From Candidatus Woesearchaeota archaeon (GTDB taxonomy: Archaea; Nanobdellota; Nanobdellia; Woesearchaeales; UBA10216), in assembly GCA_016185705.1 (NCBI GenBank), contig JACPMZ010000010.1:913-64912 (forward strand): a stretch of DNA of 64,000 bases, given 5' to 3'. Below the pieces are notes generated by a model. That model was not told the origin of the DNA and did not search any database. It saw only the letters and a program-made list of their open reading frames with translations. Each line of letters starts with the position of its first letter. Position 1 is the stretch's first letter. Below are positions 4,212 to 33,663 of this stretch, one piece after another. Both the position numbers and the translations under genes were made by a program.

Positions 4212-5288
4212 CTACCTTGTCACTTCAAATCCTTTGACTTCCTCAGCCAGCTTCCTTGCCCTGCCGTTTGCTTTGAAGTGCTGCCTTACTGGCTCCAGAA
4301 GCTCATTGATTGCGCCTGCAACAGCAGTCTTTAAATCAGCAGGGTGCAGCTTGCCGCTGCCATAAATTTTTTCCATTTCGCCATAGTCTGCAATGCTCAG
4401 GTTTCCTCCAAACTTTTCTGGCCTTTTTATTTCCAGCGTTTTCATTTTTTCAAAGACAATGTATTTGCAGTATTCAAGCACCGGGTTTTCCTTGGTTGTT
4501 TTTTCAGGGCAGTAGGCTTTTGAGATTTTCCGGGTTACATCTTCAGCAGAGTCTGTCATGAATATGGCTGTTTCCGGCTTTGATTTTGACATTTTCAGCT
4601 CAATCGCCCTGTCGGTGGCGTCTTTTGTGTCAGTTTTCGGCTCCGACAGTCCCATCAGCATGTGATGGCTTACCACCACTGGTTTCCGGTAGCCGAGTTT
4701 TTCGCCAAGCTCGCGCGCAAGCACATTCACTTTGCGCTGGTCCTGTCCGAGCTGCGCGATGTCCACTTCCAGCTCAAATATGTCTGCTGCCTGCATGCAC
4801 GGATAAAGTATCTGGGATGCCTGCTGAATTTCGGATTCTTTCCTGCCCATTATCTGGCCTGTCCTGATTATGCGCTTGACAGTTGCGTTTCTTGATATCT
4901 GCAGTACTTTCTTCCAGTATTCCTGGCTGCTGACAACCTCTGATGAGCGGACAAACTTCACTTTGTCAACATCCATTCCGGCTGCTTTCCACACTTCAAT
5001 GAGGTAGTCGCCGCATTTCTGTATTTTCTCCAAATCACCGCCAAGCTTGTTGTTTGCCCACGCATGCCAGTCTGCTGCAAACATCTTGAAGGTGCATCCT
5101 GCCTTAATCATCTTGTTGACATTTATAGACCGAAGAATTCCCTGCGCAATGTGAATCTGGCCTGATGGCTCAAAGCCGTCGTAAGCAACAGGATTCTTTT
5201 TTTCCTCAAGCAGTTCCTTAAGCTCAGCTTCGGTGATTATTTCCTCTCCAACTTCCTTGATAAGCTGCAACCGCTCCTGAACGTCCAT
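4212..5288 (-). CDS. tyrS: Tyrosyl-tRNA synthetase, archaeal type
   Basis: Class I aaRS features and an archaeal TyrRS-like sequence. KMSKS motif (LKMSKSKP) near the C-terminus. Confidence 0.85.
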   Translation of the reverse strand: MDVQERLQLIKEVGEEIITEAELKELLEEKKNPVAYDGFEPSGQIHIAQGILRSINVNKMIKAGCTFKMFAADWHAWANNKLGGDLEKIQKCGDYLIEVWKAAGMDVDKVKFVRSSEVVSSQEYWKKVLQISRNATVKRIIRTGQIMGRKESEIQQASQILYPCMQAADIFELEVDIAQLGQDQRKVNVLARELGEKLGYRKPVVVSHHMLMGLSEPKTDTKDATDRAIELKMSKSKPETAIFMTDSAEDVTRKISKAYCPEKTTKENPVLEYCKYIVFEKMKTLEIKRPEKFGGNLSIADYGEMEKIYGSGKLHPADLKTAVAGAINELLEPVRQHFKANGRARKLAEEVKGFEVTR

Positions 5289-11372: not shown

Positions 11373-11436
11373 GCTAAGCTGCCCTGATTTTCCCTTCCCT
11401 AAATATTTAGGGAGGTTAAAATCAGGGCAGCTTAGC
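11373..11436. repeat. Near-perfect 64-nt palindrome/hairpin of the GGGAGG-core family
   Basis: gctaagctgccctgatttt-CCCTTCCCTAAATATTTAGGGAGG-ttaaaatcagggcagcttagc. Lies between convergent genes. Confidence 0.8.
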
Positions 11437-11518
11437 GGCAGTGGCGAATGCAACTTTTCAATACGACCGCGGTTATGGCTTTTGTGTGCTGACAGGCCTT
11501 CGCTAAGTCAGCTGTTTT

Positions 11519-11646
11519 TTATTCTCCAGTGCATGTTTGGTTATTTCCAGGCTGCAGCTGTTATATTTTTTGCAGTATTCCCTGCACTGCTTCGCAAGCT
11601 CCTCTGTTTCATAATGGAAGCTGCATATGTGGCACTGGTATATCAT
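11519..11646 (-). CDS. Mini zinc-ribbon protein (42 aa), paralog 1
   Basis: MIYQCHICSFHYETEELAKQCREYCKKYNSCSLEITKHALENK. RBS AAAGGTGGA upstream. 3' half nearly identical to 12423..12567. Confidence 0.5.
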
Positions 11647-11830
11647 GTTTCCACCTTTTACTTGTCAAAACCACTGCGGGCTAATGTCAGAAACCAAAGG
11701 TTTCTGAGCACAGTCAAAAATGCAGCATTTTTGATGAGCCCACAGCGTGTGGTTTTGAGCATGCTCGGAAATCGCTGGCTTGCTCTTCGCTAAAGCAAAA
11801 GAGCGTGCGCCAAAAGCGATTTCCGACATG

Positions 11831-12214
11831 TCAAAAAAGCATGACATTTTCATCTTTTGGAAAATCAGCGTCAAATGTTATAAGAACCGCCTTCTCCTGC
11901 ATGGCTGTTGCAAGGTGCAGCGCGTCCGCTATCCCGAACTTCGGGTGTTTGCTGCGGATTTCCTTTTTAAGCCGGGCAGCCTCCAGCGCTATCCACTCAG
12001 TGATGGGGATGATTGCTGCCCTGCTTTTAATGAATTTTAAGCTCGTATCAAACTTTTGGTTTTCGCGCTGGAACTTGTCAGCCAGTTCAACTATGGCGAT
12101 TACCGAGGTTGCTGCCACGTCATGCTCTATCATTTGCCTAACCTTTTCCCCTTTGCCTGTGCCTCCAAGGTATTCGGCCCATGCAGAGCTCTCAATCACG
12201 TATTTATAGCCCAT
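11831..12214 (-). CDS. vapC: PIN-domain toxin VapC
   Basis: 127 aa with PIN acidic residues. Overlaps the upstream antitoxin ORF. Confidence 0.75.
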   Translation of the reverse strand: MGYKYVIESSAWAEYLGGTGKGEKVRQMIEHDVAATSVIAIVELADKFQRENQKFDTSLKFIKSRAAIIPITEWIALEAARLKKEIRSKHPKFGIADALHLATAMQEKAVLITFDADFPKDENVMLF

Positions 12215-12401
12215 TGAATTCAGCCCTGTCCTTCCCTTTCCACCTGAGGCCCTTCACAGCCCCGAACATTGAAACAGGCACTGCCGCATGCTGCCTCAAT
12301 AGCTGCTGAATCACCTGGTCATGGGTTCTTATGCGCTTCTTTTCCTTTAGGAGTTCCAGCATCTGCTTTGTTGTTCCCGAAACCTGTATTGTAGTCGCCA
12401 T
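12204..12401 (-). CDS. vapB: VapB-type antitoxin
   Basis: 65 aa, overlaps vapC by 11 nt in the typical TA arrangement. Confidence 0.6.
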   Translation of the reverse strand: MATTIQVSGTTKQMLELLKEKKRIRTHDQVIQQLLRQHAAVPVSMFGAVKGLRWKGKDRAEFNGL

Positions 12402-12422
12402 AGTTACAGTTATAACTATAAC

Positions 12423-12567
12423 TATATAAAAAGTTTTCTGTTTTCCAGCGCATGCTTCGTTATTTCCAGGCTGCAGCTGTTATATTTTTTGCAGTATTCC
12501 CTGCATTGCTTCGCCCATTTTTCTTCCTTGTAGCGGAATCCGCATATGGGGCATTGGTATGTTTTCA
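12423..12567 (-). CDS. Mini zinc-ribbon protein (48 aa), paralog 2
   Basis: GTG start with RBS GAGGTGAT. (M)KTYQCPICGFRYKEEKWAKQCREYCKKYNSCSLEITKHALENRKLFI. Lies 5 nt downstream of the ccdA stop. Confidence 0.5.
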
Positions 12568-12572
12568 CGTTA

Positions 12573-13433
12573 TCACCTCGGGAAGAGCAGGATTACAAAC
12601 TGCTCAACGAATATTGACGACAGCAATAAGTAAATTCCAACCAGCAGCAGGACTACGCTGCTTATTTTTCTTATTTTCTGGGTTCGCGAGCTGAGTTCTG
12701 ATATCGCGCTTTGTGAGATGGTAGCGAGGAAGGACAGCAAAATCATCAGGGCTGCCATTGTGGCTGAGAACATTGCGTACGCCAGCAGCGCTGATAAAAA
12801 GCCGCCTGTGGCAAATGCGAAGACGGTAAGGATTGCGAGGATGGGTCCTGCGCATCCTATGCCTATGATGTTATAGCCGAAACCAAAGACGAAAAATGAC
12901 CTTGCGGGCGTTTTTCCCTGCAGTTTTGCCACGAACTGCGCCGCCTTATCAAAAGCAGCCGAGTGGAAGCCCTTTCCAAGCAGGGGCATTGCCCCGAAAG
13001 TTATCATCAGAATTCCAACTATGCCCCTGAATGCAAGCACGGAAGCGTTGGGGCTGTCTGTGGCAAGGGCAAAGGACTTGGCAAAGTTTTCTCCGAGCAG
13101 GCCTATCAGAGAACCAAAAAGCAGGTTGAAAGCCACTATTCCAGCAGCGGTTATAATGCCGTAATAAACAACTTGCGCTTTTTTCCGGTCAGCCCTCTTT
13201 GCTGTCAGGAACCTTGTGAGATATGCCGGAAGCACGCCAAATGAGCATGGGTTGAAGAAGGTTGCGATGCCCGCTGTGACTGCAACAAGCGCTATACCAA
13301 AGACAGCTGTTTCAGGCGCTATTTTTGTCATGAACAGGATGAAAGCGTAGTATCCTGCGCCAATTATGGCGATAGCGGCAGCTATAAGCAGAATAGCGTT
13401 GTTTTTTAGGTTTGCTTTTTTGTTTTTCCTCAT
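12573..13433 (-). CDS. ccdA: CcdA/DsbD-family thiol-disulfide transporter (cytochrome c biogenesis membrane protein)
   Basis: Polytopic membrane protein with the NPCSFGVLP and GIGCAGPIL conserved Cys motifs. Confidence 0.8.
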   Translation of the reverse strand: MRKNKKANLKNNAILLIAAAIAIIGAGYYAFILFMTKIAPETAVFGIALVAVTAGIATFFNPCSFGVLPAYLTRFLTAKRADRKKAQVVYYGIITAAGIVAFNLLFGSLIGLLGENFAKSFALATDSPNASVLAFRGIVGILMITFGAMPLLGKGFHSAAFDKAAQFVAKLQGKTPARSFFVFGFGYNIIGIGCAGPILAILTVFAFATGGFLSALLAYAMFSATMAALMILLSFLATISQSAISELSSRTQKIRKISSVVLLLVGIYLLLSSIFVEQFVILLFPR

Positions 13434-13434
13434 T

Positions 13435-13863
13435 TTAATCTCTTCGGAAACCTCCGGACTTGTATATTGAAAACACTAGCAGGGCGATTGCTGCTGACAG
13501 GAAAATCCAGCTGAAATAGCTTAGCGTGACAGTAACGCTTAAAGGCAGGAAGAATGCAATGGCAGGAATGCATGCCGGGCACGCTCCAAGCAGCACGCCA
13601 AAAATTGACGCAGACGCCCCGCCTGCAGGATTTACTTTGCATGTTTTGCATTGCTTGTTGTAAATGTATAAGACAGCAAAGCTGCCTGTCAGCACTGCCA
13701 GGATTGGGTAAAGGAAAAGCGTGTACGAAATGCCGGCCATCGTCTCAAACCAGATGTCAAACCCCCTCAATGGAATTGCCGGCCACAACAAGACTGCAAG
13801 AACAACAGCAGCGCCTATTAACGCAGCCCTTCCGTTTTTCCATGCCTTGATTAGCTTTATCAT
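13435..13863 (-). CDS. Small membrane protein with a loop Cys pair (CKTCKV) and CxxC in a TM helix (GACPACIPAIAFF); MerT/VKOR-like architecture, uncharacterised family
   Basis: 142 aa. Paralogs at 27589 (N-terminal domain), 31461 and 33793. Four-nt overlap with the upstream gene. Confidence 0.65.
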   Translation of the reverse strand: MIKLIKAWKNGRAALIGAAVVLAVLLWPAIPLRGFDIWFETMAGISYTLFLYPILAVLTGSFAVLYIYNKQCKTCKVNPAGGASASIFGVLLGACPACIPAIAFFLPLSVTVTLSYFSWIFLSAAIALLVFSIYKSGGFRRD

Positions 13864-14729
13864 CTGTAAATCACTTCTATATTTTCGCTGTCAAGCACTT
13901 CATGCTCTATATCTGACTCCTGTCCGTCTGCTGTAATCGTTCCGCCGCAGTAGCTTCCAAAATCTGTCACAATACACTCGCCTGCTTCCCACCCAAACGT
14001 CTCGAACAGGTACTTCAGCGTGACTCCTTTTGCATGAACATGCACTTCTTTTCCATCGCTGTCTTCAAAATGAACAAAAGAGCTTCTTAGCTGGTATTTG
14101 GAATCGGCAAAATCAACTTTGCTTCCTCCAAGGGTAACGCTTATGTTGGCGTGCTCATGAGTCGAACCTAATACTAGGTTGGCAGATTCGCCTCTGACAA
14201 TCAAATCCTCAAGCGTTTTCGTGTCTATTGGAAACCCGTTGTCCCTGTAAACAATCTTTCCATCAGGGTCTACTATTATGGTTGTGTCAAAACTTCTGAT
14301 GCTATACAATTGTGCAATGCTCCCGTCATCAAATCCCATAATCCAGTCATTCCTGCCGAACTGCTGCCTGAAACGCTCCAGGTCCTGCGCTGTTTCGCGC
14401 TGGTCAACGTCAATCTGCATGACAACCAAAGGGATGTGCGGAAAATTGTTCTGTGCGCGCTTTACATTGGCAGCTTCTATCTGGCACGGAACGCACCACG
14501 TGGCCATTGATGCGAATAAAACGTATTTTCCCCTGAAATCAGACAGCTTTACAACATTGCCATCAATTGTTGCAAGCGCAAAGTCCCTGGCAAGTTTGCC
14601 TTCCGCAATTCCCTCTTCGGCATTCAATCCGGTTTCGGGAGGGCTTTCCGCGTTTTTCTGCGCGATAAAAAATGCTGCAATCGCAAGAATCGCCAAAAAC
14701 CCTGTTATGAAATAGTTCCTTTTCATCAT
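13860..14729 (-). CDS. TlpA/ResA-like thioredoxin (WCVPC) fused to a novel His/Cys-rich extracytoplasmic domain
   Basis: N-terminal TM anchor, Trx domain, then a C-terminal domain (HEHAN...VHVHAKG...GECIVTDFGSYCGG) paralogous to 25009, 30707 and 32240. Confidence 0.7.
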   Translation of the reverse strand: MMKRNYFITGFLAILAIAAFFIAQKNAESPPETGLNAEEGIAEGKLARDFALATIDGNVVKLSDFRGKYVLFASMATWCVPCQIEAANVKRAQNNFPHIPLVVMQIDVDQRETAQDLERFRQQFGRNDWIMGFDDGSIAQLYSIRSFDTTIIVDPDGKIVYRDNGFPIDTKTLEDLIVRGESANLVLGSTHEHANISVTLGGSKVDFADSKYQLRSSFVHFEDSDGKEVHVHAKGVTLKYLFETFGWEAGECIVTDFGSYCGGTITADGQESDIEHEVLDSENIEVIYR

Positions 14730-14740
14730 TAGTTGGCTTT

Positions 14741-16147
14741 TTATTCAACACAGCATGCCATTTCGTTCAGATTCTGCGTGAAGCTCTGCGCAACCTTCTT
14801 AATCATCTCGCTCAGCGTCGGGAAGACGTGCACCGTGTCCTTGATGTCGTCAATCGTCATTTTGTTCCTGATGGCGTACGTTGCGAGCGTGATTATGTCG
14901 GCAGCCTGCGGCCCTGCAATCTGCACTCCCAAAACCCTTCGCGTCCTGTGTTCCAGGACCATCTTTATGATGCCTCTTGCGTCTTTAATGGCAAGGGCCT
15001 TCTCAACGTGGTCCAGCTTTATTGTTGAGCACATGCACGTTTTGTAGCGCTGCATGTATTCCGCTTCGGTTATCCCGACAGCAGCTGCTTCAGGGGAGGT
15101 AAAAACTGCATAGGGAACCTGGCGGTAGTTTATGCTTTTCTTTGCATTCTCAAACATGTTGAGCACGGCAAGATTGCCTTCCTTCGCTGCCGTGGTTTCC
15201 AGCGGCATCATGCCGGTAACGTCGCCGGCTGCAAAAATGTGCTGCCTGGAAGTCCTGAAATGCCTGTTCACTTTGACAAATCCCCGCTTGTCAAGCTTTA
15301 CTCCGGCGTTTTGCGCTTCAAGCTTTTTTGTGTGCGGCTGCAGCCCTGTTCCGAGAAACAGCGCTGCTGCTGAAAATGTGCGTTTCTTTCCTTTAACCAC
15401 GGCGGTGAGCTGCAATCCTGTTTTTGTTTTCTTGACTTCTTTTGCTTCAACTCCGGTAAGGATTTGTATGCCTTCTGCCTGCAGATGCCTTTGCACTTCT
15501 GCAGAAATGTCGGGGTCAAACTTCGGCAGCACCCTGTCAGAGCGCTGGAGTACAGTGGTTTTTATTCCGAAGTGGTGGAATATCTGGGAGAACTCCATGC
15601 CTTGCGGGCCCGCACCGAGTATGATAACTGACTTCGGCTTCTTTTTCAGCTCAAAAACGTTTTTGTTAGTAAGGTAAGCAATCTTTTCTATACCTTCAAT
15701 AGGCGGAACAGATGTTGAAGCTCCAGTTGCAATGAGAATGTAATCAGCGGAATATTCGCTGTCGCCAACAGAAACAGTATGCTCATCCACAAAACTTGCT
15801 TTTCCTTCCTTGTATCCAACGTGTTCCTGCTTTTTTATTACGTTACCATAATTTTTCTTTCTGAATCCTTCAATCATCTGTTTTGTTTCCTTTAGCGCCT
15901 CTACAAAATCAGCTGTGCCTTTTACTTTAACTGCCTTAAAGCTGCTGTGGGCAGGGTAGTAATACTCGCTGCCCTGGTGCAGCATGATTTTGGAAGGAAC
16001 GCAGCCGACATTGACGCACGTTCCGCCAAGGGGCAGTATTTTGGAATCGTTTATCATTAAAGTCTTTTTTCCCAGCAAATTTGCCCTGTTGGCAGCTGCA
16101 AATGCTGCAGCTCCCCCTCCCAGGATGATTAAGTCGTACTTCGTCAT
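14741..16147 (-). CDS. merA: Mercuric reductase MerA (no NmerA domain); class I pyridine nucleotide-disulfide oxidoreductase
   Basis: GGGAAAFAAA FAD motif, redox disulfide GTCVNVGCVPSK, and a C-terminal vicinal CC (EMACCVE). ATGA overlap with the upstream ArsR stop. The ORF track begins at 16168. Confidence 0.75.
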   Translation of the reverse strand: MTKYDLIILGGGAAAFAAANRANLLGKKTLMINDSKILPLGGTCVNVGCVPSKIMLHQGSEYYYPAHSSFKAVKVKGTADFVEALKETKQMIEGFRKKNYGNVIKKQEHVGYKEGKASFVDEHTVSVGDSEYSADYILIATGASTSVPPIEGIEKIAYLTNKNVFELKKKPKSVIILGAGPQGMEFSQIFHHFGIKTTVLQRSDRVLPKFDPDISAEVQRHLQAEGIQILTGVEAKEVKKTKTGLQLTAVVKGKKRTFSAAALFLGTGLQPHTKKLEAQNAGVKLDKRGFVKVNRHFRTSRQHIFAAGDVTGMMPLETTAAKEGNLAVLNMFENAKKSINYRQVPYAVFTSPEAAAVGITEAEYMQRYKTCMCSTIKLDHVEKALAIKDARGIIKMVLEHRTRRVLGVQIAGPQAADIITLATYAIRNKMTIDDIKDTVHVFPTLSEMIKKVAQSFTQNLNEMACCVE

Positions 16148-16473
16148 CTTTCCCTCCTTTTTATGCACCCAATGCAGTATTTTGAAGTATGCAGGTTGAT
16201 TAGCTTCATGAGCGGCTCTATGGTTTGCTTGTTAAGTCTGTACACTCTTTCCTTGCCGCTTGGTTTGACGCTGACAAAGCCGCAGCTTTTCAGCCTTGCT
16301 AAACTGTTTGAGATTGTGCTTTGGTCAGCGCCAACTGCTGCCGTTATTTCCGACACGTTCTTTGACTCTTTCAGCAGCGCATTCAGTATTTTGATGCGTG
16401 TTCTGTTTGAAAGCGTTGCCAGGAAATACTCATACGCCTCATCCGGAGTTGCCTGCTGCATAACATATTTCAT
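16144..16473 (-). CDS. ArsR/SmtB-family HTH regulator (archaeal MerR-like)
   Basis: wHTH with a C-terminal CIGC. Translationally coupled to merA. Confidence 0.7.
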   Translation of the reverse strand: MKYVMQQATPDEAYEYFLATLSNRTRIKILNALLKESKNVSEITAAVGADQSTISNSLARLKSCGFVSVKPSGKERVYRLNKQTIEPLMKLINLHTSKYCIGCIKRRER

Positions 16474-16599
16474 TTTTAAAATATTTAGAAAATGAAATAC
16501 TATTTAAATGTTTCGGAATATCCGGTTTTACTGCATCCGACACCGTTTCCACGCTTTTAGCGCAAAATATGGCGGCATCTAAGAGGGCTTTTTTCCATT

Positions 16600-17670
16600 T
16601 CATGAGGTTGTCGTGGTTTTTGACAAATAGCCGAACTCTTTTGCCGCGATTACAAACATGGAATGGCTCCAGCATAGGGGAGAGACGGAAGGGGTTGTTC
16701 CGGCATGAAGCTGCTCCGGAATGAAGTGCCGGAAATTGTTGCTGTACTTCTCAAAAAGTAATTTTGCTTCAGCTCTCCTGTCCAGCTTTGAGAGCGCAAT
16801 AGCATACCAGTAAGTGAGCAGCGGCCAGCCGCCCGCGCCCTTGTTCTGCAGCCGCGTATGTGAAAGAACGCCGTCATAGACGTCATTCTCATATCGCATT
16901 ACGCCCTGGGGGGTGAGAAGGCGTTGCTCAATCCTAAGCACGGACTCTTTTGATTTGGTGTCGTGGTTGGTAACGTTGAACGGCCATATAAGGCCAAGCA
17001 AGCTGCCATCAACGTGCTCGTCAGGCAGGCTGCATACTCTCGGATAAAAGGAAGATGGGCATGTCTGCATGGCAGCAACCATCTGCTCAGATGCCCGAAG
17101 CCATTTATCGTTGTTAAGAGCTTCATGCGCTCGCCGCAGGCCGAAGCTGCAGGCTGCCAAGGAGTAGGAAAAGCTGTTTTTGATGTCATCCTTTAGGTCG
17201 CGCTCCTCCCACAGGTCATGAGCGACCACATTAAACCTTGAGCCGCCCCACCTTTCAGTCAGGCCGTCGGCAAGCAGCGTGACAGCATTTTTTGAGGCGC
17301 TATCAAGGGGTTGCGCAAGCAAAGACCACAGCAAAGCGCCTGCCTGGTCAGGCTGGTACTGCGAGCCAAACTCGGTGTCGCGCGCGCCATTGGTTGCATA
17401 GCGCTGATGAACAAGTCCTGTTTCCCTAAATCCCTCAGCGCGCTCCAGCAGCCATTTTATGAATGGCTTGCGCATGGAGTTGATGCCAAGAAGGTGGGCT
17501 GCGTACAGGGTAAAAGCGACATCCCTGGGCCAGACATAGTGGTAGTTGGCAACATTTTTGGGATAATGCTGTATGTCTGTGTTTGCAGCCACAATGGCGC
17601 CGTTCTCAAGGGCAGCTTCAAGAAAAACTTCTCTGCTTGCCTCAAGCAGTGCCTTTATGCGGTGAGACAT
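16600..17670 (-). CDS. Glycoside hydrolase family 15 (glucoamylase/glucodextranase-like)
   Basis: Motifs YHYVWPRD and HDLWEE, with an (alpha/alpha)6-type sequence. Confidence 0.65.
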   Translation of the reverse strand: MSHRIKALLEASREVFLEAALENGAIVAANTDIQHYPKNVANYHYVWPRDVAFTLYAAHLLGINSMRKPFIKWLLERAEGFRETGLVHQRYATNGARDTEFGSQYQPDQAGALLWSLLAQPLDSASKNAVTLLADGLTERWGGSRFNVVAHDLWEERDLKDDIKNSFSYSLAACSFGLRRAHEALNNDKWLRASEQMVAAMQTCPSSFYPRVCSLPDEHVDGSLLGLIWPFNVTNHDTKSKESVLRIEQRLLTPQGVMRYENDVYDGVLSHTRLQNKGAGGWPLLTYWYAIALSKLDRRAEAKLLFEKYSNNFRHFIPEQLHAGTTPSVSPLCWSHSMFVIAAKEFGYLSKTTTTS

Positions 17671-20152: not shown

Positions 20153-20479
20153 ATGAAGGAAACACCCTACAAGTTGTTTTTCAGGGCTGTCTCAAACAAA
20201 ACGAGGTGCGACATAGTGAGCCTTTTAATGAAAGGCCCGAAGAGCGTTACGCAGCTCTGCAGAAAGCTTGGCTTTGAGCAGAGCAGGGTTTCGCACAACC
20301 TTAAATGCCTTGAGATGTGCGGGTTTGTAAGCGGCAAGTACGAGGGAAAAAGCAGGGTATACTCTCTGACTCCGGAGGTAATGCAGGTGTTGAATGCCAT
20401 TGACAGGCATTTGGTTAAGTATCATGAGCATTTGAAATCATGCGGCGCTTTGGAGAATCACATGAAAGCCAAGCGATAA
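20153..20479 (+). CDS. ArsR-family HTH regulator
   Basis: 108 aa wHTH with Cys residues (CDIVSLL, CLEMCGF). Confidence 0.7.
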   Translation: MKETPYKLFFRAVSNKTRCDIVSLLMKGPKSVTQLCRKLGFEQSRVSHNLKCLEMCGFVSGKYEGKSRVYSLTPEVMQVLNAIDRHLVKYHEHLKSCGALENHMKAKR

Positions 20480-20505
20480 AAAAAATTGCAGGAGGTGGAT
20501 GAAAA

Positions 20506-20574
20506 ATGGCGAAAGACAAAACGTGCGGCTGCGGTTCGGGAAAGAAGGAAAAGGACTGCTGCGGAAGCGGCTAA
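20506..20574 (+). CDS. SEC-C motif mini-protein (22 aa)
   Basis: MAKDKTCGCGSGKKEKDCCGSG matches the SecA C-terminal zinc motif CxCxSGx8CC. Strong RBS GGAGGTGG. Confidence 0.5.
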   Translation: MAKDKTCGCGSGKKEKDCCGSG

Positions 20575-20799
20575 GTTTGAGTTGCAAACTATGGAGGTGA
20601 TTTGCATGTGCGGAACTTGTGGCGATGGCGGAGGCGCTTAAGCGCTTCCAGCCCAATCTGCCTTATGCTTACAGATTCAATAAAAGCAGGACAGGAAAAG
20701 GTGGAAAGGAATGAAAAACGTATTGATTGTGGTTTTGGCAAAGGTACATTGAGGAGTATTACGAAGTTCCTTTTGATTAATGACATGGAGGCGATAAGA

Positions 20800-21039
20800 A
20801 TGGCAAAAGTAAAGGTTTACAGCACACCAACATGCCCTTGGTGCAAGAAGACAAAAGAGCTGCTGAATGAGAACAGCATCGGTTTTGAGGACATTAATGT
20901 TGCTGCGGACTCTAAAGCGGCGCAGGAGATGTTCAGGAAGTCCGGACAGATGGGCGTTCCGGTGACTGACATTGACGGTCAGATAATTGTCGGATTTGAC
21001 AAGCTAAAGTTGAAACAGCTGTTGAAAATCAGCGGATGA
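20800..21039 (+). CDS. Glutaredoxin/NrdH-like redoxin
   Basis: MAKVKVYSTPTCPWCKK. RBS GGAGG before ATG 20800. The ORF track extends from 20602. Confidence 0.75.
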   Translation: MAKVKVYSTPTCPWCKKTKELLNENSIGFEDINVAADSKAAQEMFRKSGQMGVPVTDIDGQIIVGFDKLKLKQLLKISG

Positions 21040-21070
21040 AGAAAAGAAATACTTGTTGCCAGTGGGTGTC

Positions 21071-21202
21071 ATGATGAAAGAGGTGGTGCGCTTGGCCTGT
21101 GAGGTTTGCATTGAGGGAGAGAAGGGCAGAATCTGCATTGACATCTGTAAATTCATGGAGACAGGCAGGATGGAGTGCAGGTTCAGGGAAAGGCTACTTT
21201 GA
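21071..21202 (+). CDS. Small Cys-rich protein (43 aa), hypothetical
   Basis: [43 protein letters not shown]. Weak RBS. Overlaps the copA 3' end. Confidence 0.25.
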
Positions 21203-23788
21203 TGCGTCAAAGTAGCCTTTTGCCCTGTAACTTTTCATGAGCAGCGAGTTGCTCAGCACGCTCACTGAGCTGAATGCCATGGCAATCCCTGCTATTATCG
21301 GATTCAGCAAAAAGCCTGTGAACGGGAACAGGATGCCTGCTGCTATCGGGATTCCTGCGGTGTTGTAAAAGAATGCCCAGAAGAGGTTCTGCTTGATTTT
21401 TTTCAGGGCGTAATTGCTCAAATCAATGGCTGTAACTACGTCTCTTAAGTCGTTTTTCACCAAAACAACATCGCCTGTCTCTATCGCCACGTCTGTGCCG
21501 GAGCCGATAGCTATTCCAATATCTGCCTGCGCAAGCGCAGGCGCATCATTTATGCCGTCTCCAACCATTGCCACTTTCAGCCCTTTTTCCTGCAGCTTCT
21601 TTATCTCGTTTTCCTTCTCTTCCGGAAGCACTTCCGCAAGCACTTCGTCTATTCCGAGCTGTCTTGCAATGGCTGCTGCTGTTTTCCTGTTATCGCCTGT
21701 TATCATCATTACTTTTTTTCCCATTTTGTGCAGCTGCTCAACTGCTTCTTTTGAATAGTCTTTTATCGTATCAGCTACAGCTATCACTCCGGATATTTTC
21801 TTCCCTGTGGCTACGAGCATTACTGTTTTGCCTGCTTTCTCAAGCTTTTGTATGGAGCTCTCAGCGTTTTTTGTGTCAATGCTGAACTGTTCCATCAGCT
21901 TTCTGTTGCCTACGAGAATTTTTTTCCCGTTTGAGACTGCTGTCACGCCTTTTCCGGTAACAGAGTTGAAGTTTGTGATTCGCAGCAGCTTTAGCTCTTT
22001 CTTTTCAGCGGCTTTTACAATAGCCGTGCTTAACGGGTGCTCTGATTTTTTTTCAACAGCTGCTGCCAGTTTCAGTATTTCATTCCTGCTGCCGTTGAAT
22101 GCTGCCACTTCAGTTACTTCAGGCGTCCCTTTTGTAAGCGTCCCTGTCTTGTCAAAGATTATTGTGTCAACTTTTCCTGTTTTCTGCAGCGCCTCTGCAG
22201 TCTTGAAAAGTATCCCGTTTTGCGCTCCTATCCCTGAGCCGACCATTATTGCTGTTGGCGTTGCCAGGCCAAGGGCGCATGGGCAGGCAATTATAAGAAC
22301 TGCAATAAATATCGTAAGGGCAAAAACAAAGCCAAAGCCGAGCGCATACCATAATAAGAACGAAATTATGCCGATAACGACCACTGCCGGGACAAAGTAT
22401 GAGGAGATTGCGTCTGCAAGTTTCTGGATGGGCGCTTTGCTTCCCTGCGCCTCCTCGACAAGCTTTATTATCTGGGCAAGGACAGTGTCTTTTCCTACTT
22501 TCGTTGCCCTGAATGTAAAGCTGCCTGTCTTGTTTATTGATGCTCCGACAACGCTGCTGCCTTTTGCTTTCTCTACAGGGATGCTCTCCCCTGTAACCAT
22601 TGACTCGTCAACAGAGGAGTGGCCTTCAACAATAACTCCGTCAACAGGGATTTTCTGGCCTGGCTTGACTATAACTGCATCCCCCACAGCTACTTCATCA
22701 ACATTTACTTCAACCTCTTTTCCTTTCCTCAGAACAATTGCCTTTTTTGCCTGCAGTCCGAGAAGCTTCTTTATCGCTTCTGAAGTTCTGCCCCTTGCAA
22801 CTGCTTCCAGGTATCTGCCAAGCAAAATGAACATTATCAGCAGCCCTGCAATTTCGTAATAGAGGCTGCTGTGGCCGTAGTCTGCATTGCCGCTCCATAT
22901 GATGGCTGACACGGCAAGGCTGTAAAGGTATGCTGCTCCTGTTCCGGCTGCTATGAGCGTGTCCATGTTTGCAGTTCTGGTGCGTATAACTGCGGAAATC
23001 CCCTTGGTGAAGAATTCGTAGCCTGCAAGCATTATCGGGGTTGTGAGGAGGAACTGGATTAAGGCAATGTTTTCCTCAGCAAATGCAGGTATTGGCATGC
23101 CGAATGCTGAGCCCATGGCAAAGTAAAGCAGCGGCAGCCCCAAAACAGCAGAAATCAGAAGCTTGATTTTCAGTATCCTTGTCTCTTTTTCTCTGGCTGC
23201 TTTTTCAGCATCCAAATCCTCGCTGAATTTTTCCGGCTCATAGCCCGCATTTCTTATCGTTTTCATTATTTTTTCAAGCGTGACTTGTTTTGGCTCATAA
23301 TTCACTACAGCCCGTTCAATGGCAAAACTGGCGTCCACTTTCAGCACTCCAGGCTGCTTTTTCAGGGCTGATTCAACGATTCCTGCGCAGTGCTGCGAGG
23401 ACATGCCTCTCACTTTCAGGGCAACTTCAGCGGCTTTTCCGGCAGGCGCTTTTATGACTTCGTAGCCGCTTTTCTTCACCGCATCCTCCAGCGCCGCATC
23501 GCTGACTTTTGAGCCGTCGTATTCAACAGAAGCTTTTTCAGAGGCATAATTTACGCTGGCGCTGATGACTCCGGGAATTTTTTTAATCTCTTTCTCAATT
23601 TTCACAGCGCAGGAAGCGCAGTGCATTCCCTTCAGGGGCAGTATTTTTTTGGTTGCCGCCCTTTTTCCAAGAAAGCTGTCGTAGCACTGTTTGCTGCAAA
23701 AAAAGTATTTCTTCCCGTTCTTTGCGGCAGAAAACCTGGCTTTTTTATCGTCAACTTCCATTCCGCACACAGGGTCTTTCGCGCTCAT
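21194..23788 (-). CDS. copA: Copper-translocating P1B-type ATPase with N-terminal YHS/TRASH and two HMA domains
   Basis: DPVCGMEV...C..C (YHS/TRASH), [12 protein letters not shown] and [11 protein letters not shown] (HMA), CPC, DKTGT, GDGIND. Confidence 0.9.
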
Positions 23789-29035: not shown

Positions 29036-30160
29036 TTGAAACAATCCAACAAAACAGAATCAGCACTGTACGCAGCGCTTGCACTGGCCGCGGCAATATC
29101 GCTCCTGAATGTTTTTATCCTGCAAATCCGTGCAGAGCAGGTCAGCGAAGCAAAGGAAGCTGCGGAAGAGCTGGCAAGGCCGGCAGACATAGAAGCGACT
29201 AAAATACTGCTTTCCGGCTGCGAGGAATGCTTTGACATTCAAAATGCCTTGGAAGAGCTTAAGAAGCAAAACGTCAACCTGCTGACTGAAAAAAGCCTTT
29301 TCATTGAAGATGAAGAAGCTAAAGAGCTCATACGCCGCTACGGGATTGAAAAAATCCCTGCGTTGGTAATCTCAGGCGAGGTAAACAAGACAAGCCAGCT
29401 AGCCGCCTATTTTGAAAAAACAGGCGTTATCTCAGGCGACGGAACAGCAGTGTACACGAACATAAAACCGCCATACTACAACACAACTGCCAAAAAAGTG
29501 GTTGGAAAAGTAAGCGTTCTGAACATCGTTGACTCCCAATGCGAAACATGCGCGTCATTAAGCCAGGTAAAAGAATCGCTGAAACAGGCAGGGGTTGTCA
29601 TAACAGAAGAAAAGACTTATGAGTATTCCTCGCCGGAAGGGCAGGAGCTTATTGACAGGTTCAACGTGAGCAGAGCGCCTGCGCTTCTGATATCAGCAGA
29701 AGTCAACCATTACGCCGGAGTGGGAAGCCAGTTGCAGCAGCTGGCAGAAGAGAAAAGCGGCTTTTACGCCCTTCACTCCACCTCTCCGCCTTACAGAGAT
29801 CTGCAGCAGGACAGAATCGTTGGAGAGGTAACGCTAATCCTGCTGAAAGACGGTTCCTGCGCAGAATGCTACGATGTGAAAATCAACAAGCAGATATTAC
29901 AAGGGTTTGGAGTTGCGATAACAGAAGAGGAGACCTATGACGTTTCGTCAGAAGAAGGGCAGGCTTTAATCGCAAAATACGGCATAGAAAAAGCGCCTGT
30001 AATACTCATGTCGCCGGACGCTGCGCATTATCCGGCGCTTGCGCAGGCATGGAAAAGCGTCGGCACAGTGGAAAGTGACGGGTGGCATGTTATGAGAAAG
30101 CCGGAAACTCTGGGAACTTACAAGGAGCTGGAAAGCGGAAAAGCAGTGCAGGCAGGTTAG
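29036..30160 (+). CDS. Membrane-anchored protein with three tandem thioredoxin-fold repeats (CEEC, CETC, CAEC; cis-Pro IPA/APA)
   Basis: Internal ~100-aa triplication. TTG start with GGTGG RBS. Confidence 0.65.
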   Translation: MKQSNKTESALYAALALAAAISLLNVFILQIRAEQVSEAKEAAEELARPADIEATKILLSGCEECFDIQNALEELKKQNVNLLTEKSLFIEDEEAKELIRRYGIEKIPALVISGEVNKTSQLAAYFEKTGVISGDGTAVYTNIKPPYYNTTAKKVVGKVSVLNIVDSQCETCASLSQVKESLKQAGVVITEEKTYEYSSPEGQELIDRFNVSRAPALLISAEVNHYAGVGSQLQQLAEEKSGFYALHSTSPPYRDLQQDRIVGEVTLILLKDGSCAECYDVKINKQILQGFGVAITEEETYDVSSEEGQALIAKYGIEKAPVILMSPDAAHYPALAQAWKSVGTVESDGWHVMRKPETLGTYKELESGKAVQAG

Positions 30161-30215
30161 AAAAATTGAGCCAGACCATAGCTTAGGCAGGAATGCCCGC
30201 CACCCTTTGATTTAA

Positions 30216-30710
30216 TTGTTTCATATTGATGGAAAAATGAATGAAAGCGACAAAAAGAAATCCGCAGTTGTAGCAGCGTTTGCGCTGTTCCTTGCAGCCG
30301 GCATTGCCTACATTGCGTTCACAAACGAGGAAACGCAGCCGGATTACGAAACTCCTCCGCCTGAAAAAGTGGTTGAGCAGTATTTCACTGCATGGAACGA
30401 CAAAAACTATCCTGACATGTATGCAGCCATATCAGACGGCTTCAAGAAGATAGAGCCTACCGCGAATGATTTAAGGGCGTTTAAAAGCTATGCCGAATCC
30501 CAGAAAATAAGCAATGCCAGAGTGCTGTCAGTGAATGAAGTTTCAAACGACGGCAAAACAGCTGCCGTCAGCTACTCTGTTGAATTTCTGCTTGCAGGCG
30601 GAACAAAAAGCAGATTTGACGGGACTTTTACATTGAAATACAGGGAAGGGGATGTAATTCCGGGATGGAAGCTGATACACCCTTACGGCGAAAACATAGA
30701 CGCTTCATGA
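30216..30710 (+). CDS. Membrane-anchored hypothetical protein (NTF2-like?)
   Basis: 164 aa. ATGATGA coupling to the next gene. Confidence 0.45.
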   Translation: MFHIDGKMNESDKKKSAVVAAFALFLAAGIAYIAFTNEETQPDYETPPPEKVVEQYFTAWNDKNYPDMYAAISDGFKKIEPTANDLRAFKSYAESQKISNARVLSVNEVSNDGKTAAVSYSVEFLLAGGTKSRFDGTFTLKYREGDVIPGWKLIHPYGENIDAS

Positions 30711-31477
30711 TGACTCCAAACATTCGCAATGCACGGCAGAAGAATAAACCGAAAACTGGTAACGCTGAAAAAATCGTGACATCATTTATCGTATTGGCTG
30801 TGCTCGCAGCTGCACTCTCATTTTTTTACGTTTCAAAATCGCTGTTTTTTCCAGGCGAAGGGGGCGGAGGTCAGCAGCAGACAAGCCATTTCTCATCCGC
30901 GGGCTTTACCGCTTTTGACGTTGAACTCGCCAAAAAGCTCATGGACAAAGACAGCGACGGCAAATGCGACAGCTGCGGGATGGACTTGGAATTCTGCATA
31001 CAAAGCGGGCAGCTGCAGTGCAGCATGGACCCGAAATCAACCATTGGCGTTTTGGACACCACAAAGGAAAAGCACCACTACCACGCAGATTTCAAAGTGT
31101 ACATTAGCGGCGAAGAAATTGACTTCAGCCAGCAGAAGTATTTTGTCAAAAGCAGGTTCATCCATGTTGAGAACGACGTTCAGGGCGATTCAGGAAAGGT
31201 TCTGCACATGCACGCCTCCGGAGTCCCCTTGTGGGTGTTCTTTGAAAGCGTTGGGATGAAATTCAACGAAAGCTGCTTTGTCACGGACGGCAGGGAAGCG
31301 CACTGCAACAACAATGGCAGAACATTAAGCTTTTACACAAACGGAAAACAAAATCCCGAATACGAAAGCTACGTTTTTCAGGATGGCGACAGGATTCTGA
31401 TAAGCTATGGAAGCGAAAATGGGGAAGAAATAAAAAAGCAGCTTAGTTCAATAACAGATTTTGCAAAAAACCATTAG
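30707..31477 (+). CDS. Membrane-anchored protein with a TRASH-like CDSCGMD motif plus the novel His/Cys extracytoplasmic domain
   Basis: HHYHADFKVYISGEE...HMHASG...C...C...DGDRILISYG. Paralog of 13860-C-terminus, 25009 and 32240. Confidence 0.65.
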   Translation: MMTPNIRNARQKNKPKTGNAEKIVTSFIVLAVLAAALSFFYVSKSLFFPGEGGGGQQQTSHFSSAGFTAFDVELAKKLMDKDSDGKCDSCGMDLEFCIQSGQLQCSMDPKSTIGVLDTTKEKHHYHADFKVYISGEEIDFSQQKYFVKSRFIHVENDVQGDSGKVLHMHASGVPLWVFFESVGMKFNESCFVTDGREAHCNNNGRTLSFYTNGKQNPEYESYVFQDGDRILISYGSENGEEIKKQLSSITDFAKNH

Positions 31478-31943
31478 TAAAATGATTAATGCGAAAAAGC
31501 TTGTAACAGAAAAGGCAGCCGCGCTCTCAACCTCCCTGTCAGGAGCGCTGAGCTTCATGGGCGGCTACCAGGTGTGCCACAACATCTGCCTTGGAATAAT
31601 AGCCCTTCTGTCAATAGCAGGCATAACGCTGGTTGGCATGCCCCTCCTGTTCCTTACCAGGGTAGCAGTACCGCTTTGGACAGCCGCTTTTGCGCTGTTC
31701 CTCATAACCCTGGCCATTAGCTTCATAAAGAAGTGCATTCCTAAAAAGATTATTGTATTGAACGCCGGAATCCTGATTGCAGGAGTCCCGTTTGCCCCTG
31801 TACAGCCCTACGCCCCGCTCTTATGGATAACAGGCGGAAGCATGGCAGCTTTAAGCATTCTTTTTTACATCCGGGCAAAGGTTAACAAAAGCCGCGCAGG
31901 TAAGCGGAAGGGGAAAACATTCAGCAGCAGCATTGGCACTTGA
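31461..31943 (+). CDS. Small polytopic membrane protein with CxxxC in a TM helix (QVCHNICLG)
   Basis: 160 aa. Overlaps the upstream gene by 17 nt. Confidence 0.55.
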   Translation: MQKTISKMINAKKLVTEKAAALSTSLSGALSFMGGYQVCHNICLGIIALLSIAGITLVGMPLLFLTRVAVPLWTAAFALFLITLAISFIKKCIPKKIIVLNAGILIAGVPFAPVQPYAPLLWITGGSMAALSILFYIRAKVNKSRAGKRKGKTFSSSIGT

Positions 31944-32098
31944 GCTTGAAGGCAACTCATTAAATAAAGTGCGCCGCACCAGCCAATTTCCGCCTTGCAG
32001 CGCTTAACAGGCGGCTTCAGCTTTATGCACTCCAAAAAGCAGAGTGCCATTAAAAACATAAAGTATTTAACCATCACCTTTTGCCGTAACAGGCAGCA

Positions 32099-32200
32099 AT
32101 GGTCGCCTGCACGGACTGCGGTAAGGAATTTGATTCCAGAATGAGCATGGAGCAGCACTATGCTGCGAAGCATGCAAAGCAGAAGCCTGTTTCCCCATAA
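32099..32200 (+). CDS. C2H2 zinc-finger mini-protein (33 aa), possibly the N-terminus of the downstream ORF
   Basis: MVACTDCGKEFDSRMSMEQHYAAKHAKQKPVSP. TATA-like AAAGTATTTAA about 27 nt upstream. In frame with 32240..32692 across a single TAA. Confidence 0.5.
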   Translation: MVACTDCGKEFDSRMSMEQHYAAKHAKQKPVSP

Positions 32201-32239
32201 TCTAAGAAGTCAAAAAAGAAGCCGATTATTGCAGCGCTT

Positions 32240-32692
32240 TTGCTGATAATTGTTTTGGGTTCAGGATATTTCATGTTTTTTAACAGTTCAGGGGAAAAGC
32301 CTGTTATTGAGCAAGCTGATGTTGCAGATGTTAATCTTGATGAAGTTCCAAAAGGCCCTATTCACTGGCATCCTGAGCTTACTGTCATTATTAAGGGAGA
32401 GGTTCAGAACATTCCAAGAAATCTGGGTCTTGGAAGTGTGCACAAGCCGGTTCACACGCATGATGACGTTCCAGTGCTTCACTATGAGAACAGCAGGCCG
32501 ACTGCTGAAACTGTCACGCTTGGCTACTTTTTCAGCGATGTGTGGAGAAAAACTTTTAACAGCCAATGCATTTTCAGTTACTGCAGCGGAGCAGAAGGCA
32601 ATCTGTCAATGACGGTTAATGGCAAGCCCAATTTTCAGTTTGATAATTACATCCCGAAAGACGGCGATAAGATAGTGATTATGTTTGGATAG
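32240..32692 (+). CDS. Novel His/Cys extracytoplasmic domain protein (fourth paralog)
   Basis: IHWHPELTVIIKGE...VHTHDD...C..C...DGDKIVIMFG. No canonical start upstream of its TM anchor except by reading through the TAA at 32198. Confidence 0.6.
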   Translation: MLIIVLGSGYFMFFNSSGEKPVIEQADVADVNLDEVPKGPIHWHPELTVIIKGEVQNIPRNLGLGSVHKPVHTHDDVPVLHYENSRPTAETVTLGYFFSDVWRKTFNSQCIFSYCSGAEGNLSMTVNGKPNFQFDNYIPKDGDKIVIMFG

Positions 32693-32777
32693 GCTGTGCT
32701 GATAAGCTTCCCCAACGTGTTGTTAAGTTTTCGGCTGTTACCAAATACTTTAAGCAAACGATAATGCGCAGTAGTAG

Positions 32778-32815
32778 CAGATGCAGCTCAAAGCCAAAAC
32801 ACTGCCGCCCGCAGA
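32778..32815. repeat. 35-bp direct repeat GCTCAAAGCCAAAACACTGCCGCCCGCAGATT, copy 1 (70 bp upstream of the dsbA-like gene)
   Basis: Second copy at 34360..34396 with one mismatch. Confidence 0.8.
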
Positions 32816-32883
32816 TTTAACAGAACGCATTTACGGAAAACTTTTTAAAGAAAAAGCGCATCGCGCACAAAGGGTGATAACTG

Positions 32884-33663
32884 ATGATAGAGCACGACAA
32901 GATGCACCACAAGGCTAAGGGTGAAACTGAAAGTATTGTAAAGATTAAGAGCGAGGAGGAAGAGACTTTCAAAATTAAGAAAACAACGTTGTGGCAGGGA
33001 CTCTCAGCAGTTTTGGGGGTGCTTCTTGCGGTATCCATTTTTACAGGCGGTTTTGGTTATGGCAATGGCTCTGAAGGCAGCGTCGCTGTCAGGGAGCCTG
33101 TTGCAGCTCAGCCAAGCGCTCCATCTCCCACTCCGACTGTTGATGTCCAGATTGGCGATGCCCCTGCTCTTGGTGACGAGAACGCTCCTGTGACATTGAT
33201 TGAATTTTCAGACTTCCAGTGCCCGTTTTGCGGCAGGCACTTTTCGCAGACTCATTCGCAGATAAAACAGCAGTACATTGACACTGGAAAAGTAAGGTTT
33301 GTTTACAAGCATTTCCCGCTTGATAGCATTCACCCGCAGGCAACGCCTGCAGCTCTTGCCTCTGAATGCGCCCGCGAGCAGGGCAAGTTCTGGGAATACC
33401 ATGACCTGATTTTCCAGAACCAGCAGTCTCTTGGAGATGCAAGCTACAAGCAGTGGGCATCCCAGCTCAGCCTTGACACAAACAAGTTTAACGGCTGCTA
33501 TGACAGCCAGAAATACATTGAGCGTGTAAGGAGCGACCTTCAGCAGGGCACTGATGCAGGCGTTCGCGGCACTCCGGGCTTCCTGCTGAATGGCGTAGCC
33601 ATAAGCGGCGCTCAGCCGTTTGATGTGTTCCAGCAGGCAATTGAGGCAGCGCTTTCGGGCTGA
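32884..33663 (+). CDS. DsbA-family thiol-disulfide oxidoreductase (CPFC)
   Basis: TM anchor, FSDFQCPFCGRHF, and a cis-Pro GTPGF. Confidence 0.8.
   Translation: MIEHDKMHHKAKGETESIVKIKSEEEETFKIKKTTLWQGLSAVLGVLLAVSIFTGGFGYGNGSEGSVAVREPVAAQPSAPSPTPTVDVQIGDAPALGDENAPVTLIEFSDFQCPFCGRHFSQTHSQIKQQYIDTGKVRFVYKHFPLDSIHPQATPAALASECAREQGKFWEYHDLIFQNQQSLGDASYKQWASQLSLDTNKFNGCYDSQKYIERVRSDLQQGTDAGVRGTPGFLLNGVAISGAQPFDVFQQAIEAALSG

Follow-up and report, generated by a model that had tools for sequence, protein, structure and literature searches.

The DNA considered here is a window of 64,000 nucleotides (nt), positions 913 to 64,912 of contig JACPMZ010000010.1 (assembly GCA_016185705.1), from a metagenome-assembled genome (MAG) of Candidatus Woesearchaeota, a member of the DPANN archaea. 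Between positions 12422 and 16473, the minus strand of this window carries a compact cluster of 6 open reading frames (ORFs). In order, these encode an ArsR-type regulator, a mercuric reductase (MerA), a TlpA-like thioredoxin fused to a β-grasp domain, a small protein with four predicted transmembrane (4-TM) helices and a CPAC motif, a divergent CcdA, and a small Cys-rich protein (Table 1). The best reading of the cluster is that it is a variant of the ArsR/MerA/DsbD-family/thioredoxin type of mer operon that has been annotated in Gram-positive bacteria. Its real interest lies in an uncharacterised membrane family that is linked to MerA and in the obligatory thioredoxin partner of that family. 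A membrane-anchored TlpA-like thioredoxin followed by a 4-TM protein with the motif GACPACIP is a conserved module, which is found recurrently beside MerA.

Table 1. Genes, protein domains and candidate control elements of the mer-type cluster and its immediate surroundings (window coordinates; aa, amino acid residues).
Feature	Position	Strand	Remarks
TATA-like box TTTAAATA	16501..16508	-	28 nt upstream of the arsR ATG; putative operon promoter
Imperfect palindrome, 34 bp	16466..16499		17-nt arms, 88% complementary; between TATA box and arsR start, overlapping the start
ArsR/SmtB-family regulator, 109 aa	16144..16473	-	Cys64 and C-terminal CxxC (C99, C102)
MerA core enzyme, 468 aa	14741..16147	-	No NmerA domain; CVNVGC active site, C-terminal vicinal CC
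TlpA fusion, whole, 289 aa	13860..14729	-	Thioredoxin domain and β-grasp domain
N-terminal membrane anchor and TlpA/ResA-like thioredoxin domain	14190..14729	-	WCVPC; PF00578 (2.6e-14), PF08534 (4.4e-10)
C-terminal His/Cys-rich β-grasp domain, 109 aa plus stop	13860..14189	-	No Pfam family
4-TM protein, 142 aa	13435..13863	-	CKTC in predicted cytoplasmic loop, GACPACIP in TM3; uncharacterised family
Divergent CcdA/DsbD-family membrane protein, 286 aa	12573..13433	-	Cys63 and Cys194 invariant
Small Cys-rich protein, 48 aa	12422..12568	-	GTG start after GAGGTGA; CxxC-x13-C-x3-C-x5-C
TATA box TTTATATA (perfect)	12423..12430	-	22 nt before the vapB-like ATG; overlaps the stop of the first small Cys-rich gene
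Second small Cys-rich copy, 47 aa	11503..11646	-	Direct repeat of 128 nt, 81% identical; 81% aa identity

Organization and transcription signals of the cluster

All of the ORFs named in the initial annotation of this DNA, including ArsR at 16473..16144, are found on the minus strand. That annotation had counted seven genes; the count is six, and 12423..16473 leaves no space for a seventh. The junctions can be read directly from the sequence. As previously described, the arsR and merA genes overlap by ATGA, the genes for the TlpA fusion and the 4-TM protein also overlap, and 1 nt separates the 4-TM gene from the ccdA-like gene. The first overlap has a GGAGG 5 nt upstream, and the second is likewise an ATGA. 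The gap between merA and the TlpA fusion is 11 nt rather than 12, and that between the ccdA-like gene and the small Cys-rich ORF is 4 nt rather than 5, the GAGGTGA of the latter overlapping the stop codon of the former. As no gap exceeds 11 nt, translational coupling and a single transcript are likely. T5 runs are present inside the genes, and thus, co-transcription is likely rather than proven. The tight packing of a mer-type cluster that had been claimed is therefore confirmed, and from this spacing the six genes are probably co-transcribed. The arrangement also exceeds what would be expected by chance, as judged from gene order, since the same order recurs on independent contigs of other phyla.

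Because the host is an archaeon, archaeal signals apply. A scan of the coding strand from 11400 to 16700 for the TATA pattern TTTATATA, allowing no more than 1 mismatch, gave only two sites, one before arsR and one before a vapB-like gene that lies beyond the cluster. The palindrome between the first of these and the arsR start is a candidate ArsR operator, inferred from a position that is as expected for a repressor site. A bacterial-type promoter scan returned 9 sites against 6.5 ± 2.5 expected, which is the chance level, and for this operon the bacterial promoter and terminator scans are uninformative.

A TlpA/4-TM pair that recurs beside MerA

In every locus examined (designated here by L numbers), a TlpA/redoxin gene precedes the 4-TM gene, and in many cases its stop codon overlaps the start codon of the 4-TM gene. 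This order is present in the window and in L001, L002 (as an uncalled ORF), L003, L004 (Woykebacteria), L006 (Saccharibacteria), L007, and L009. In L001 and L003, the order is ArsR, MerA, TlpA, an additional gene in some cases, and the CPAC membrane protein, while in L009 the pair adjoins a canonical MerR-MerT-HMA-MerF-MerA...MerB operon. A motif survey, in which one genome per GTDB species was scanned for GACPACIP[VA], yielded 20 confirmed loci and was followed by tblastn. A TlpA gene lies directly upstream of the 4-TM gene in every surveyed locus for which the upstream flank is present (16/16), and a MerA homolog (33-70% identity, E <= 1e-77) is found in 15 of the 20. Four of the five MerA-less loci are contigs of 4.7 kb or less. 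In the fifth, L031, a MerC-like gene (PF03203, 26.3 bits against a cutoff of 27.6) overlaps the TlpA gene. Thus, the linkage of TlpA and the CxxC membrane protein to MerA, first proposed from the window alone, holds over about 20 independent loci. No description of the TlpA/4-TM pair was found in the body of papers that was open to searching.

Loci with the pair come from Woesearchaeota, from many Candidate Phyla Radiation (CPR) lineages, and from MAGs labelled Limnocylindrales, Gamma- and Alphaproteobacteria, and Bipolaricaulia. Given its spread over such distant lineages, the module is mobile, like other mer genes.

Other genes are found in these neighbourhoods. At some loci, a conserved secreted or anchored protein of ~260 residues with the motif GGC(I/L)YCNAP(A/G)GAGGC(Y/F)KK is encoded between the TlpA and 4-TM genes (L001 5832..6620; L003 7378..8514; L002 1982..2764). 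This protein has no Pfam family and is absent from the window operon; the L003 copy is fused to a cupredoxin-like N-terminal domain. A second membrane family with CxxC in a helix, 164-201 residues long, is present in mer-like clusters (L001 4472..4966; L027 4995..5504; L006 6112..6717), with the motifs QCSAC, ACASC, and NCVAC; the L001 member has 31% identity to the window 4-TM protein. Finally, mer-like clusters of CPR bacteria encode MerC-like proteins (GACPLCW) and a 75-residue MerT-like protein (LCCGP) that fall just under the Pfam cutoffs (L004 3075..3473 and 4868..5095; L027 5514..5903; L031 2415..2837).

The 4-TM GACPACIP family

The 4-TM protein of the window has no match in Pfam, NCBIfam, or the PDB sequences. 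Its family comprises 114 homolog clusters, none of them named, from Woesearchaeota and CPR bacteria (among them Woykebacteria, Saccharibacteria, Lloydbacteria, and Kerfeldbacteria). The exact sequence GACPACIP is present within the third hydrophobic segment in 113 of the 114 members. The Lys-rich loop that precedes this segment contains a vicinal CC in 65 of the 114, a CxxC in 21 (including the CKTC of the window), and a single Cys in 26. The distribution of K and R along the family alignment, read by the positive-inside rule, predicts that the N-terminus, the Lys-rich loop, and the C-terminus are cytoplasmic and that CPAC is located in the outer half of TM3.

The initial annotation had called this protein MerT-like. 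However, hhalign comparisons of the family with MerT, MerF, the 'MerT' of pMAB23, and mycobacterial MerH gave probabilities of 0.5% or less (the Tn21-type reference genes were taken from an annotated plasmid), and no relationship to MerT, MerF, or mycobacterial MerH is seen. In addition, tblastn of the window protein and of a distant family member against 72,556 plasmids gave no match. With MerC, hhalign aligns the CxxC helix alone: LLGACPACIPAIAFFL pairs with AMGCAACFPALASFG across 27 columns (Prob 65.6%). When the comparison is made with a small MerC profile to which the CPR MerC-like proteins contribute, 16 columns align (Prob 69.5%). The local match has an E value of about 5e-5 and is limited to these 16-27 columns. 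On these alignments, the likeness of the CPAC helix to MerC is a shared metal-binding-helix motif, which falls short of demonstrated homology.

The TlpA fusion and its β-grasp domain

The redoxin domain of the fusion (residues ~44-175) is located behind a hydrophobic N-terminal anchor, and ATWC(V/T/I)PC is kept in all full-length homologs. The protein scores below the equivalog cutoffs both for ResA (67.8 bits against 170) and for TlpA (42.3 against 230), and by these scores it is classed as a member of the TlpA/ResA superfamily only. Only Woesearchaeota-like loci and a small number of CPR loci encode a TlpA protein fused to the β-grasp domain; at other loci, this protein consists of 175-195 residues.

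The C-terminal domain had been described as novel. An exhaustive HMMER search (E <= 1e-3) retrieves 426 representative clusters, mostly of 150-250-residue proteins; in others, the domain is joined to a redoxin domain, C2H2 fingers, cohesin, or a β-propeller. The invariant residues are H11, H13, H40, H50, C72, and C81. Two paralogs are present in the window itself (30665..31477 and 32240..32692), within a second thiol-redox cluster. Thus, the idea that the domain is unique to the fusion was rejected. It is widespread, is found in non-mer contexts as well, and, given its 426 clusters and two window paralogs, is not mercury-specific. The sequence contexts indicate that it is a general partner of extracytoplasmic thiol-redox proteins, and it probably binds a metal or another ligand.

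The second extracytoplasmic thiol-redox cluster of the window extends over 29036..33663. It encodes a 374-residue multi-thioredoxin-like protein, a 270-residue and a 150-residue protein that each contain one of the β-grasp paralogs, a 160-residue membrane protein that has CHNIC within a helix, and a DsbA-like protein (FQCPFC).

MerA and ArsR

By sequence criteria, the window MerA is a member of the mercuric reductase family. It scores 492.3 bits against the equivalog model TIGR02053 (cutoff 454.45), and the remaining models for flavoprotein disulfide reductases, including those for dihydrolipoamide dehydrogenase and glutathione reductase, are below their cutoffs. The closest PDB matches are Lysinibacillus MerA (5x1y, 7e-88) and Metallosphaera sedula MerA (4ywo, 1.6e-81). 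The redox-active CxxxxC of the FAD domain, GGTCVNVGCVPSK, aligns with the same motif in both structures, and the C-terminus, ...EMACCVE, aligns with their SCC (628/629 in Bacillus numbering); the C-terminal CC is also present in the MerAs of L001 and L003. The criteria of Boyd and Barkay include Tyr264 and, at position 605, Tyr in bacteria or Phe in archaea (PMC3466566). Mapped by alignment rather than by numbering, the Tyr of KKNYGNV corresponds to the Tyr of 5x1y and 4ywo, and the Phe of HVFPT matches that of HMFPT in the archaeal 4ywo. The original MerA call is thus bona fide by every sequence criterion of the family. The frame is also open from a GTG 21 nt upstream of the ATG.

The regulator matches PF01022 (E 2.4e-13) and NF033788 (67.5 bits against a cutoff of 55). 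Its pattern of Cys64 plus a C-terminal CxxC is common to the ArsRs of L001, L011, and a Paenibacillus mer operon. The ArsRs of CPR loci have a different Cys pattern, and metal specificity is not readable from sequence.

The CcdA-like protein and the small Cys-rich protein

The CcdA-like protein has no Pfam or NCBIfam match at E <= 0.1, and as a single-sequence query against the PDB it returns only noise. Homologs with 40-60% identity to it carry PF02683. When the family profile is searched against the PDB, the sole match is CcdA (5vkv, E 0.015), to which both Cys motifs ('PC...P' and 'C.GP') align. A tblastn search of plasmids retrieves annotated CcdA genes (best E 6e-9), the top match being a CcdA gene located immediately upstream of merA, with an ArsR gene nearby, in a Paenibacillus Tn3-type element. 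Together, these comparisons identify the 286-residue protein as a divergent CcdA. The earlier ccdA label therefore holds through its homologs and not through a direct Pfam or NCBIfam match.

Among loci with the TlpA/4-TM pair, a CcdA-like gene is present only in the window, L021, L028, L029, and L007/L025; the clusters of L001, L003, L004, and L006 have none. CcdA is thus not a conserved member of the module, and the suggestion that the module is powered by CcdA could apply at most to the window organism. The closest named homolog of the CcdA-like protein (51% identity) is encoded in an Aenigmarchaeota MAG (L011 5228..9086), where the genes run ArsR, a 145-residue membrane protein, the CcdA-like protein, a 45-residue YHS protein, and a P-type ATPase. 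This gene order indicates that the CcdA-like family is also linked to a metal-ATPase system without MerA.

Longer homologs of the small Cys-rich protein pass the cutoff for DUF7128 (PF23447), while the two window copies do not; judged by these homologs, the protein is an N-terminally short member of DUF7128. It has no match to YHS/PF04945 and lacks the C-x19-22-C-x3-C pattern of TRASH. Homologs of DUF7128 are found in the mer-like clusters of L001, L017, L018, and L030, and in L013 one follows the CcdA-like gene.

Relationship to known mer and thiol-redox systems

Component for component, the window cluster resembles mer operons of actinomycetes and Firmicutes, such as those of Gordonia/Rhodococcus, of a Paenibacillus urinalis plasmid, and of Streptomyces lividans 1326, whose mer gene content we take to be an example of the actinomycete type. 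In both, ArsR replaces MerR, and a CcdA/DsbD-family membrane protein and an external thioredoxin-fold protein replace MerT and MerP. The likeness is one of component types as annotated. Unlike the operons of this type, the window cluster belongs to a DPANN archaeon, and its MerA lacks NmerA. Its thioredoxin carries the extra β-grasp domain and has as its constant partner the 4-TM GACPACIP protein, which is unmatched in the plasmid collection, and a DUF7128 Cys protein has been added.

ArsR-type repressors govern mer in Sulfolobus and Streptomyces lividans (PMC3466566), and the DsbD family is listed as having a mercury-resistance role (PMC4608589). Table 4 of a 2025 review (PMC12195606) lists, for actinomycetes, mer proteins that have TrxA domains ('mercury transporter', 'mer operon ORF3') and mer proteins that have CcdA domains ('mercury resistance transport protein'). 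As mer operons of actinomycetes and Firmicutes have already been annotated with ArsR, MerA, a DsbD/CcdA-family protein, and a thioredoxin-like protein, the route has more precedent than the initial annotation implied. Its observation that MerT and MerP are absent and that thiol-motif proteins occupy the uptake positions is upheld; the hand-off of Hg that it proposed is a putative mechanism.

Several likenesses bear on the membrane step. MerC (PF03203), the 4-TM Hg(II) importer of Tn21, and the window protein both have ~140 residues and four TM helices, and both contain an in-helix CxxC followed by (F/I)-P-A-(L/I)-A as well as a second, cytoplasmic Cys pair. In MerC, however, the CxxC helix is TM1, whereas the CPAC helix is TM3, and genuine MerC-like genes co-occur with the 4-TM family in L004, L027, and L031. 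The MerP/MerT relay follows the same logic. An external protein with a dithiol is encoded beside a membrane protein that has a Cys pair within a helix and another facing the cytoplasm, and the two feed the C-terminal CC of MerA. Unlike MerP, which has the HMA fold, the external partner in the window has the thioredoxin fold, and the 4-TM protein is unrelated in sequence to MerT and MerF.

The TlpA/ResA plus CcdA pathway of cytochrome c and CuA maturation shares with the window the anchored WCxPC thioredoxin and a CcdA with both catalytic Cys. Unlike that pathway, the window cluster lacks cytochrome c maturation genes and is embedded in a mer operon. The mer locus of Sulfolobus (an ArsR-type MerR, the TRASH protein MerH, and MerA) is similar in its archaeal, ArsR-repressed merA, in the Phe at 'Y605', and in a small Cys-rich accessory protein. 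This protein is TRASH/YHS in Sulfolobus and DUF7128-like in the window, and the Sulfolobus locus is without membrane or thioredoxin components (PMC3466566). More generally, archaeal mer loci have been described as being without transporters (PMC3466566), while CPR lineages and some DPANN are reported to have MerA (PMC8261052).

A possible Hg(II) relay

We lean toward the view that the cluster is an ArsR-repressed Hg(II) detoxification operon of a Woesearchaeota archaeon in which the TlpA and 4-TM proteins form an Hg(II) relay. The scheme builds on gene identity, packing, and co-occurrence, and each transfer of Hg in it is inferred. Without Hg(II), ArsR would occupy the palindrome that follows the TATA box; it would be released when the thiolates of Cys64 and the C-terminal CxxC bind Hg(II). 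Outside the cell, the reduced WCVPC dithiol of TlpA would capture Hg(II) in the manner of MerP, possibly aided by the β-grasp domain, and ligand exchange would then bring it to the 4-TM protein, at the CPAC pair of TM3. From there Hg(II) would pass to the Cys pair of the cytoplasmic loop and then, perhaps via the DUF7128 protein, to the C-terminal CC of MerA, which would reduce it to volatile Hg(0). In the window organism, CcdA might keep the external thiols reduced or might act as a second Hg carrier of the DsbD family, as annotated in actinomycetes.

A broader and more tentative proposal is that the TlpA ectoprotein, as a MerP analogue, and the GACPACIP protein, as a MerT/MerC analogue, may constitute an unrecognised system for Hg(II) uptake and hand-off, and the main transporter of CPR and DPANN organisms, which lack low-molecular-weight thiol buffers. 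The module is a concrete candidate for the missing membrane step of archaeal mer loci. Should it carry Hg(II), the mer toolbox would gain a new transporter family, and it would become clear how a thiophilic metal is dealt with by ultra-small symbionts that have no glutathione-like buffers. Should it carry electrons, it would be a new minimal analogue of DsbD/CcdA. The widespread His/Cys β-grasp domain that partners extracytoplasmic thioredoxins also deserves attention.

A number of points weigh against the relay and its extension to uptake. The MerC-like and MerT-like genes at several loci mean that the pair need not be the importer. The 4-TM family shows no full-length homology to any known Hg transporter with which it was compared, CP-x-C is a classic redox-active motif, and 23% of the members have only a single loop Cys. 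The AlphaFold2 model of the 4-TM protein is of moderate quality (pLDDT, the predicted local distance difference test, is 74.4 overall and ~55 around the CPAC helix), and no structural relative of the model was found. The occurrence of the β-grasp domain in non-mer contexts and the T5 runs within operon genes, across which read-through has to be assumed, count on the same side. Finally, the evidence base is sequence, and the host is uncultured.

Alternative explanations

The main alternative, though a somewhat unlikely one, is that TlpA and the 4-TM protein, the latter as a small analogue of DsbD/CcdA, are a thiol-disulfide electron-transfer pair. Such a pair would keep or repair extracytoplasmic thiols under Hg(II) or oxidant stress, while Hg(II) would reach MerA by diffusion or by other carriers (MerC-like, MerT-like, or CcdA). 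This explanation accords with the typically redox-active character of CP-x-C, with the reductase activity of TlpA proteins as a family, and with the use of the same β-grasp domain by the second thiol-redox cluster of the window. The tlpA gene of Thermus thermophilus is induced by Hg(II) (PMC6445937), and carriers of the MerC-like or MerT-like kind are encoded alongside the pair in L004, L027, and L031. Most pair loci have no CcdA gene in the cluster, and therefore the external thioredoxin needs another reductant, a role that the 4-TM protein would fill. In the window, however, the 4-TM protein would then be redundant with CcdA. The loop pair is mostly a vicinal CC (65/114), an arrangement that is typical of Hg ligands and poor for disulfide cycling. 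In addition, the CPAC helix resembles the Hg-binding helix of MerC, and it is MerA specifically, not Dsb or cytochrome genes in general, to which the module is linked.

It is improbable that the cluster serves copper or another soft metal. In that case, the TlpA fusion and its partners would, like TlpA/Sco systems, mature or protect copper proteins, and the MerA-like enzyme would have another role as a disulfide or metal reductase. Cupredoxin genes or domains and HMA domains do occur near the module in L002, L003, and L006, the closest CcdA-like homolog is the Aenigmarchaeota protein encoded beside a YHS protein and a P-type ATPase, and there is a weak Pfam match to SCO1/SenC. Yet MerA is above its equivalog cutoff, has the Hg-specific C-terminal CC, and is the most constant neighbour of the module, and the neighbours in L009 include MerT, MerF, and MerB. 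Because ArsR, glutaredoxin, and a CopA-type ATPase are encoded as a set of their own elsewhere in the window (20153..23788), handling of copper by the mer-type cluster, which the initial annotation had kept as an alternative to Hg(II), is unlikely, and it was rejected.

Least probable of all is mere adjacency, with merA and the downstream genes as separate transcription units of unrelated functions: terminator-like hairpins and T5 runs are present inside the cluster and the bacterial-type scans used do not model archaeal signals, but two ATGA overlaps, gaps of 1, 4, and 11 nt, the lack of a TATA-like box between 16501 and 12430, and a neighbourhood conserved across domains of life all argue against it.

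Neighbouring features

The separate set at 20153..23788 looks like a copper or soft-metal efflux system. It comprises a second ArsR paralog (108 residues, with CLEMCGFV and a C-terminal Cys), a glutaredoxin-like ORF (CPWC), and a convergent gene for an 864-residue P1B-type ATPase, whose N-terminus carries a YHS/TRASH-like motif and which also has two HMA motifs and a CPC motif.

Downstream of the mer-type cluster, a VapB-like (12401..12204) and PIN/VapC (12214..11831) pair separates the two copies of the small Cys-rich gene, and the arrangement over 11503..12568 resembles the insertion of a cassette within, or next to, a gene that has been duplicated. A 17-nt palindrome is found at 12400..12425. 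Downstream of the second small Cys-rich gene, at a distance of about 70 nt, is a hairpin-forming palindrome of 64 nt without a loop (11373..11436), whose 32-nt arms are 91% complementary; it could be a terminator or a site of recombination or binding.

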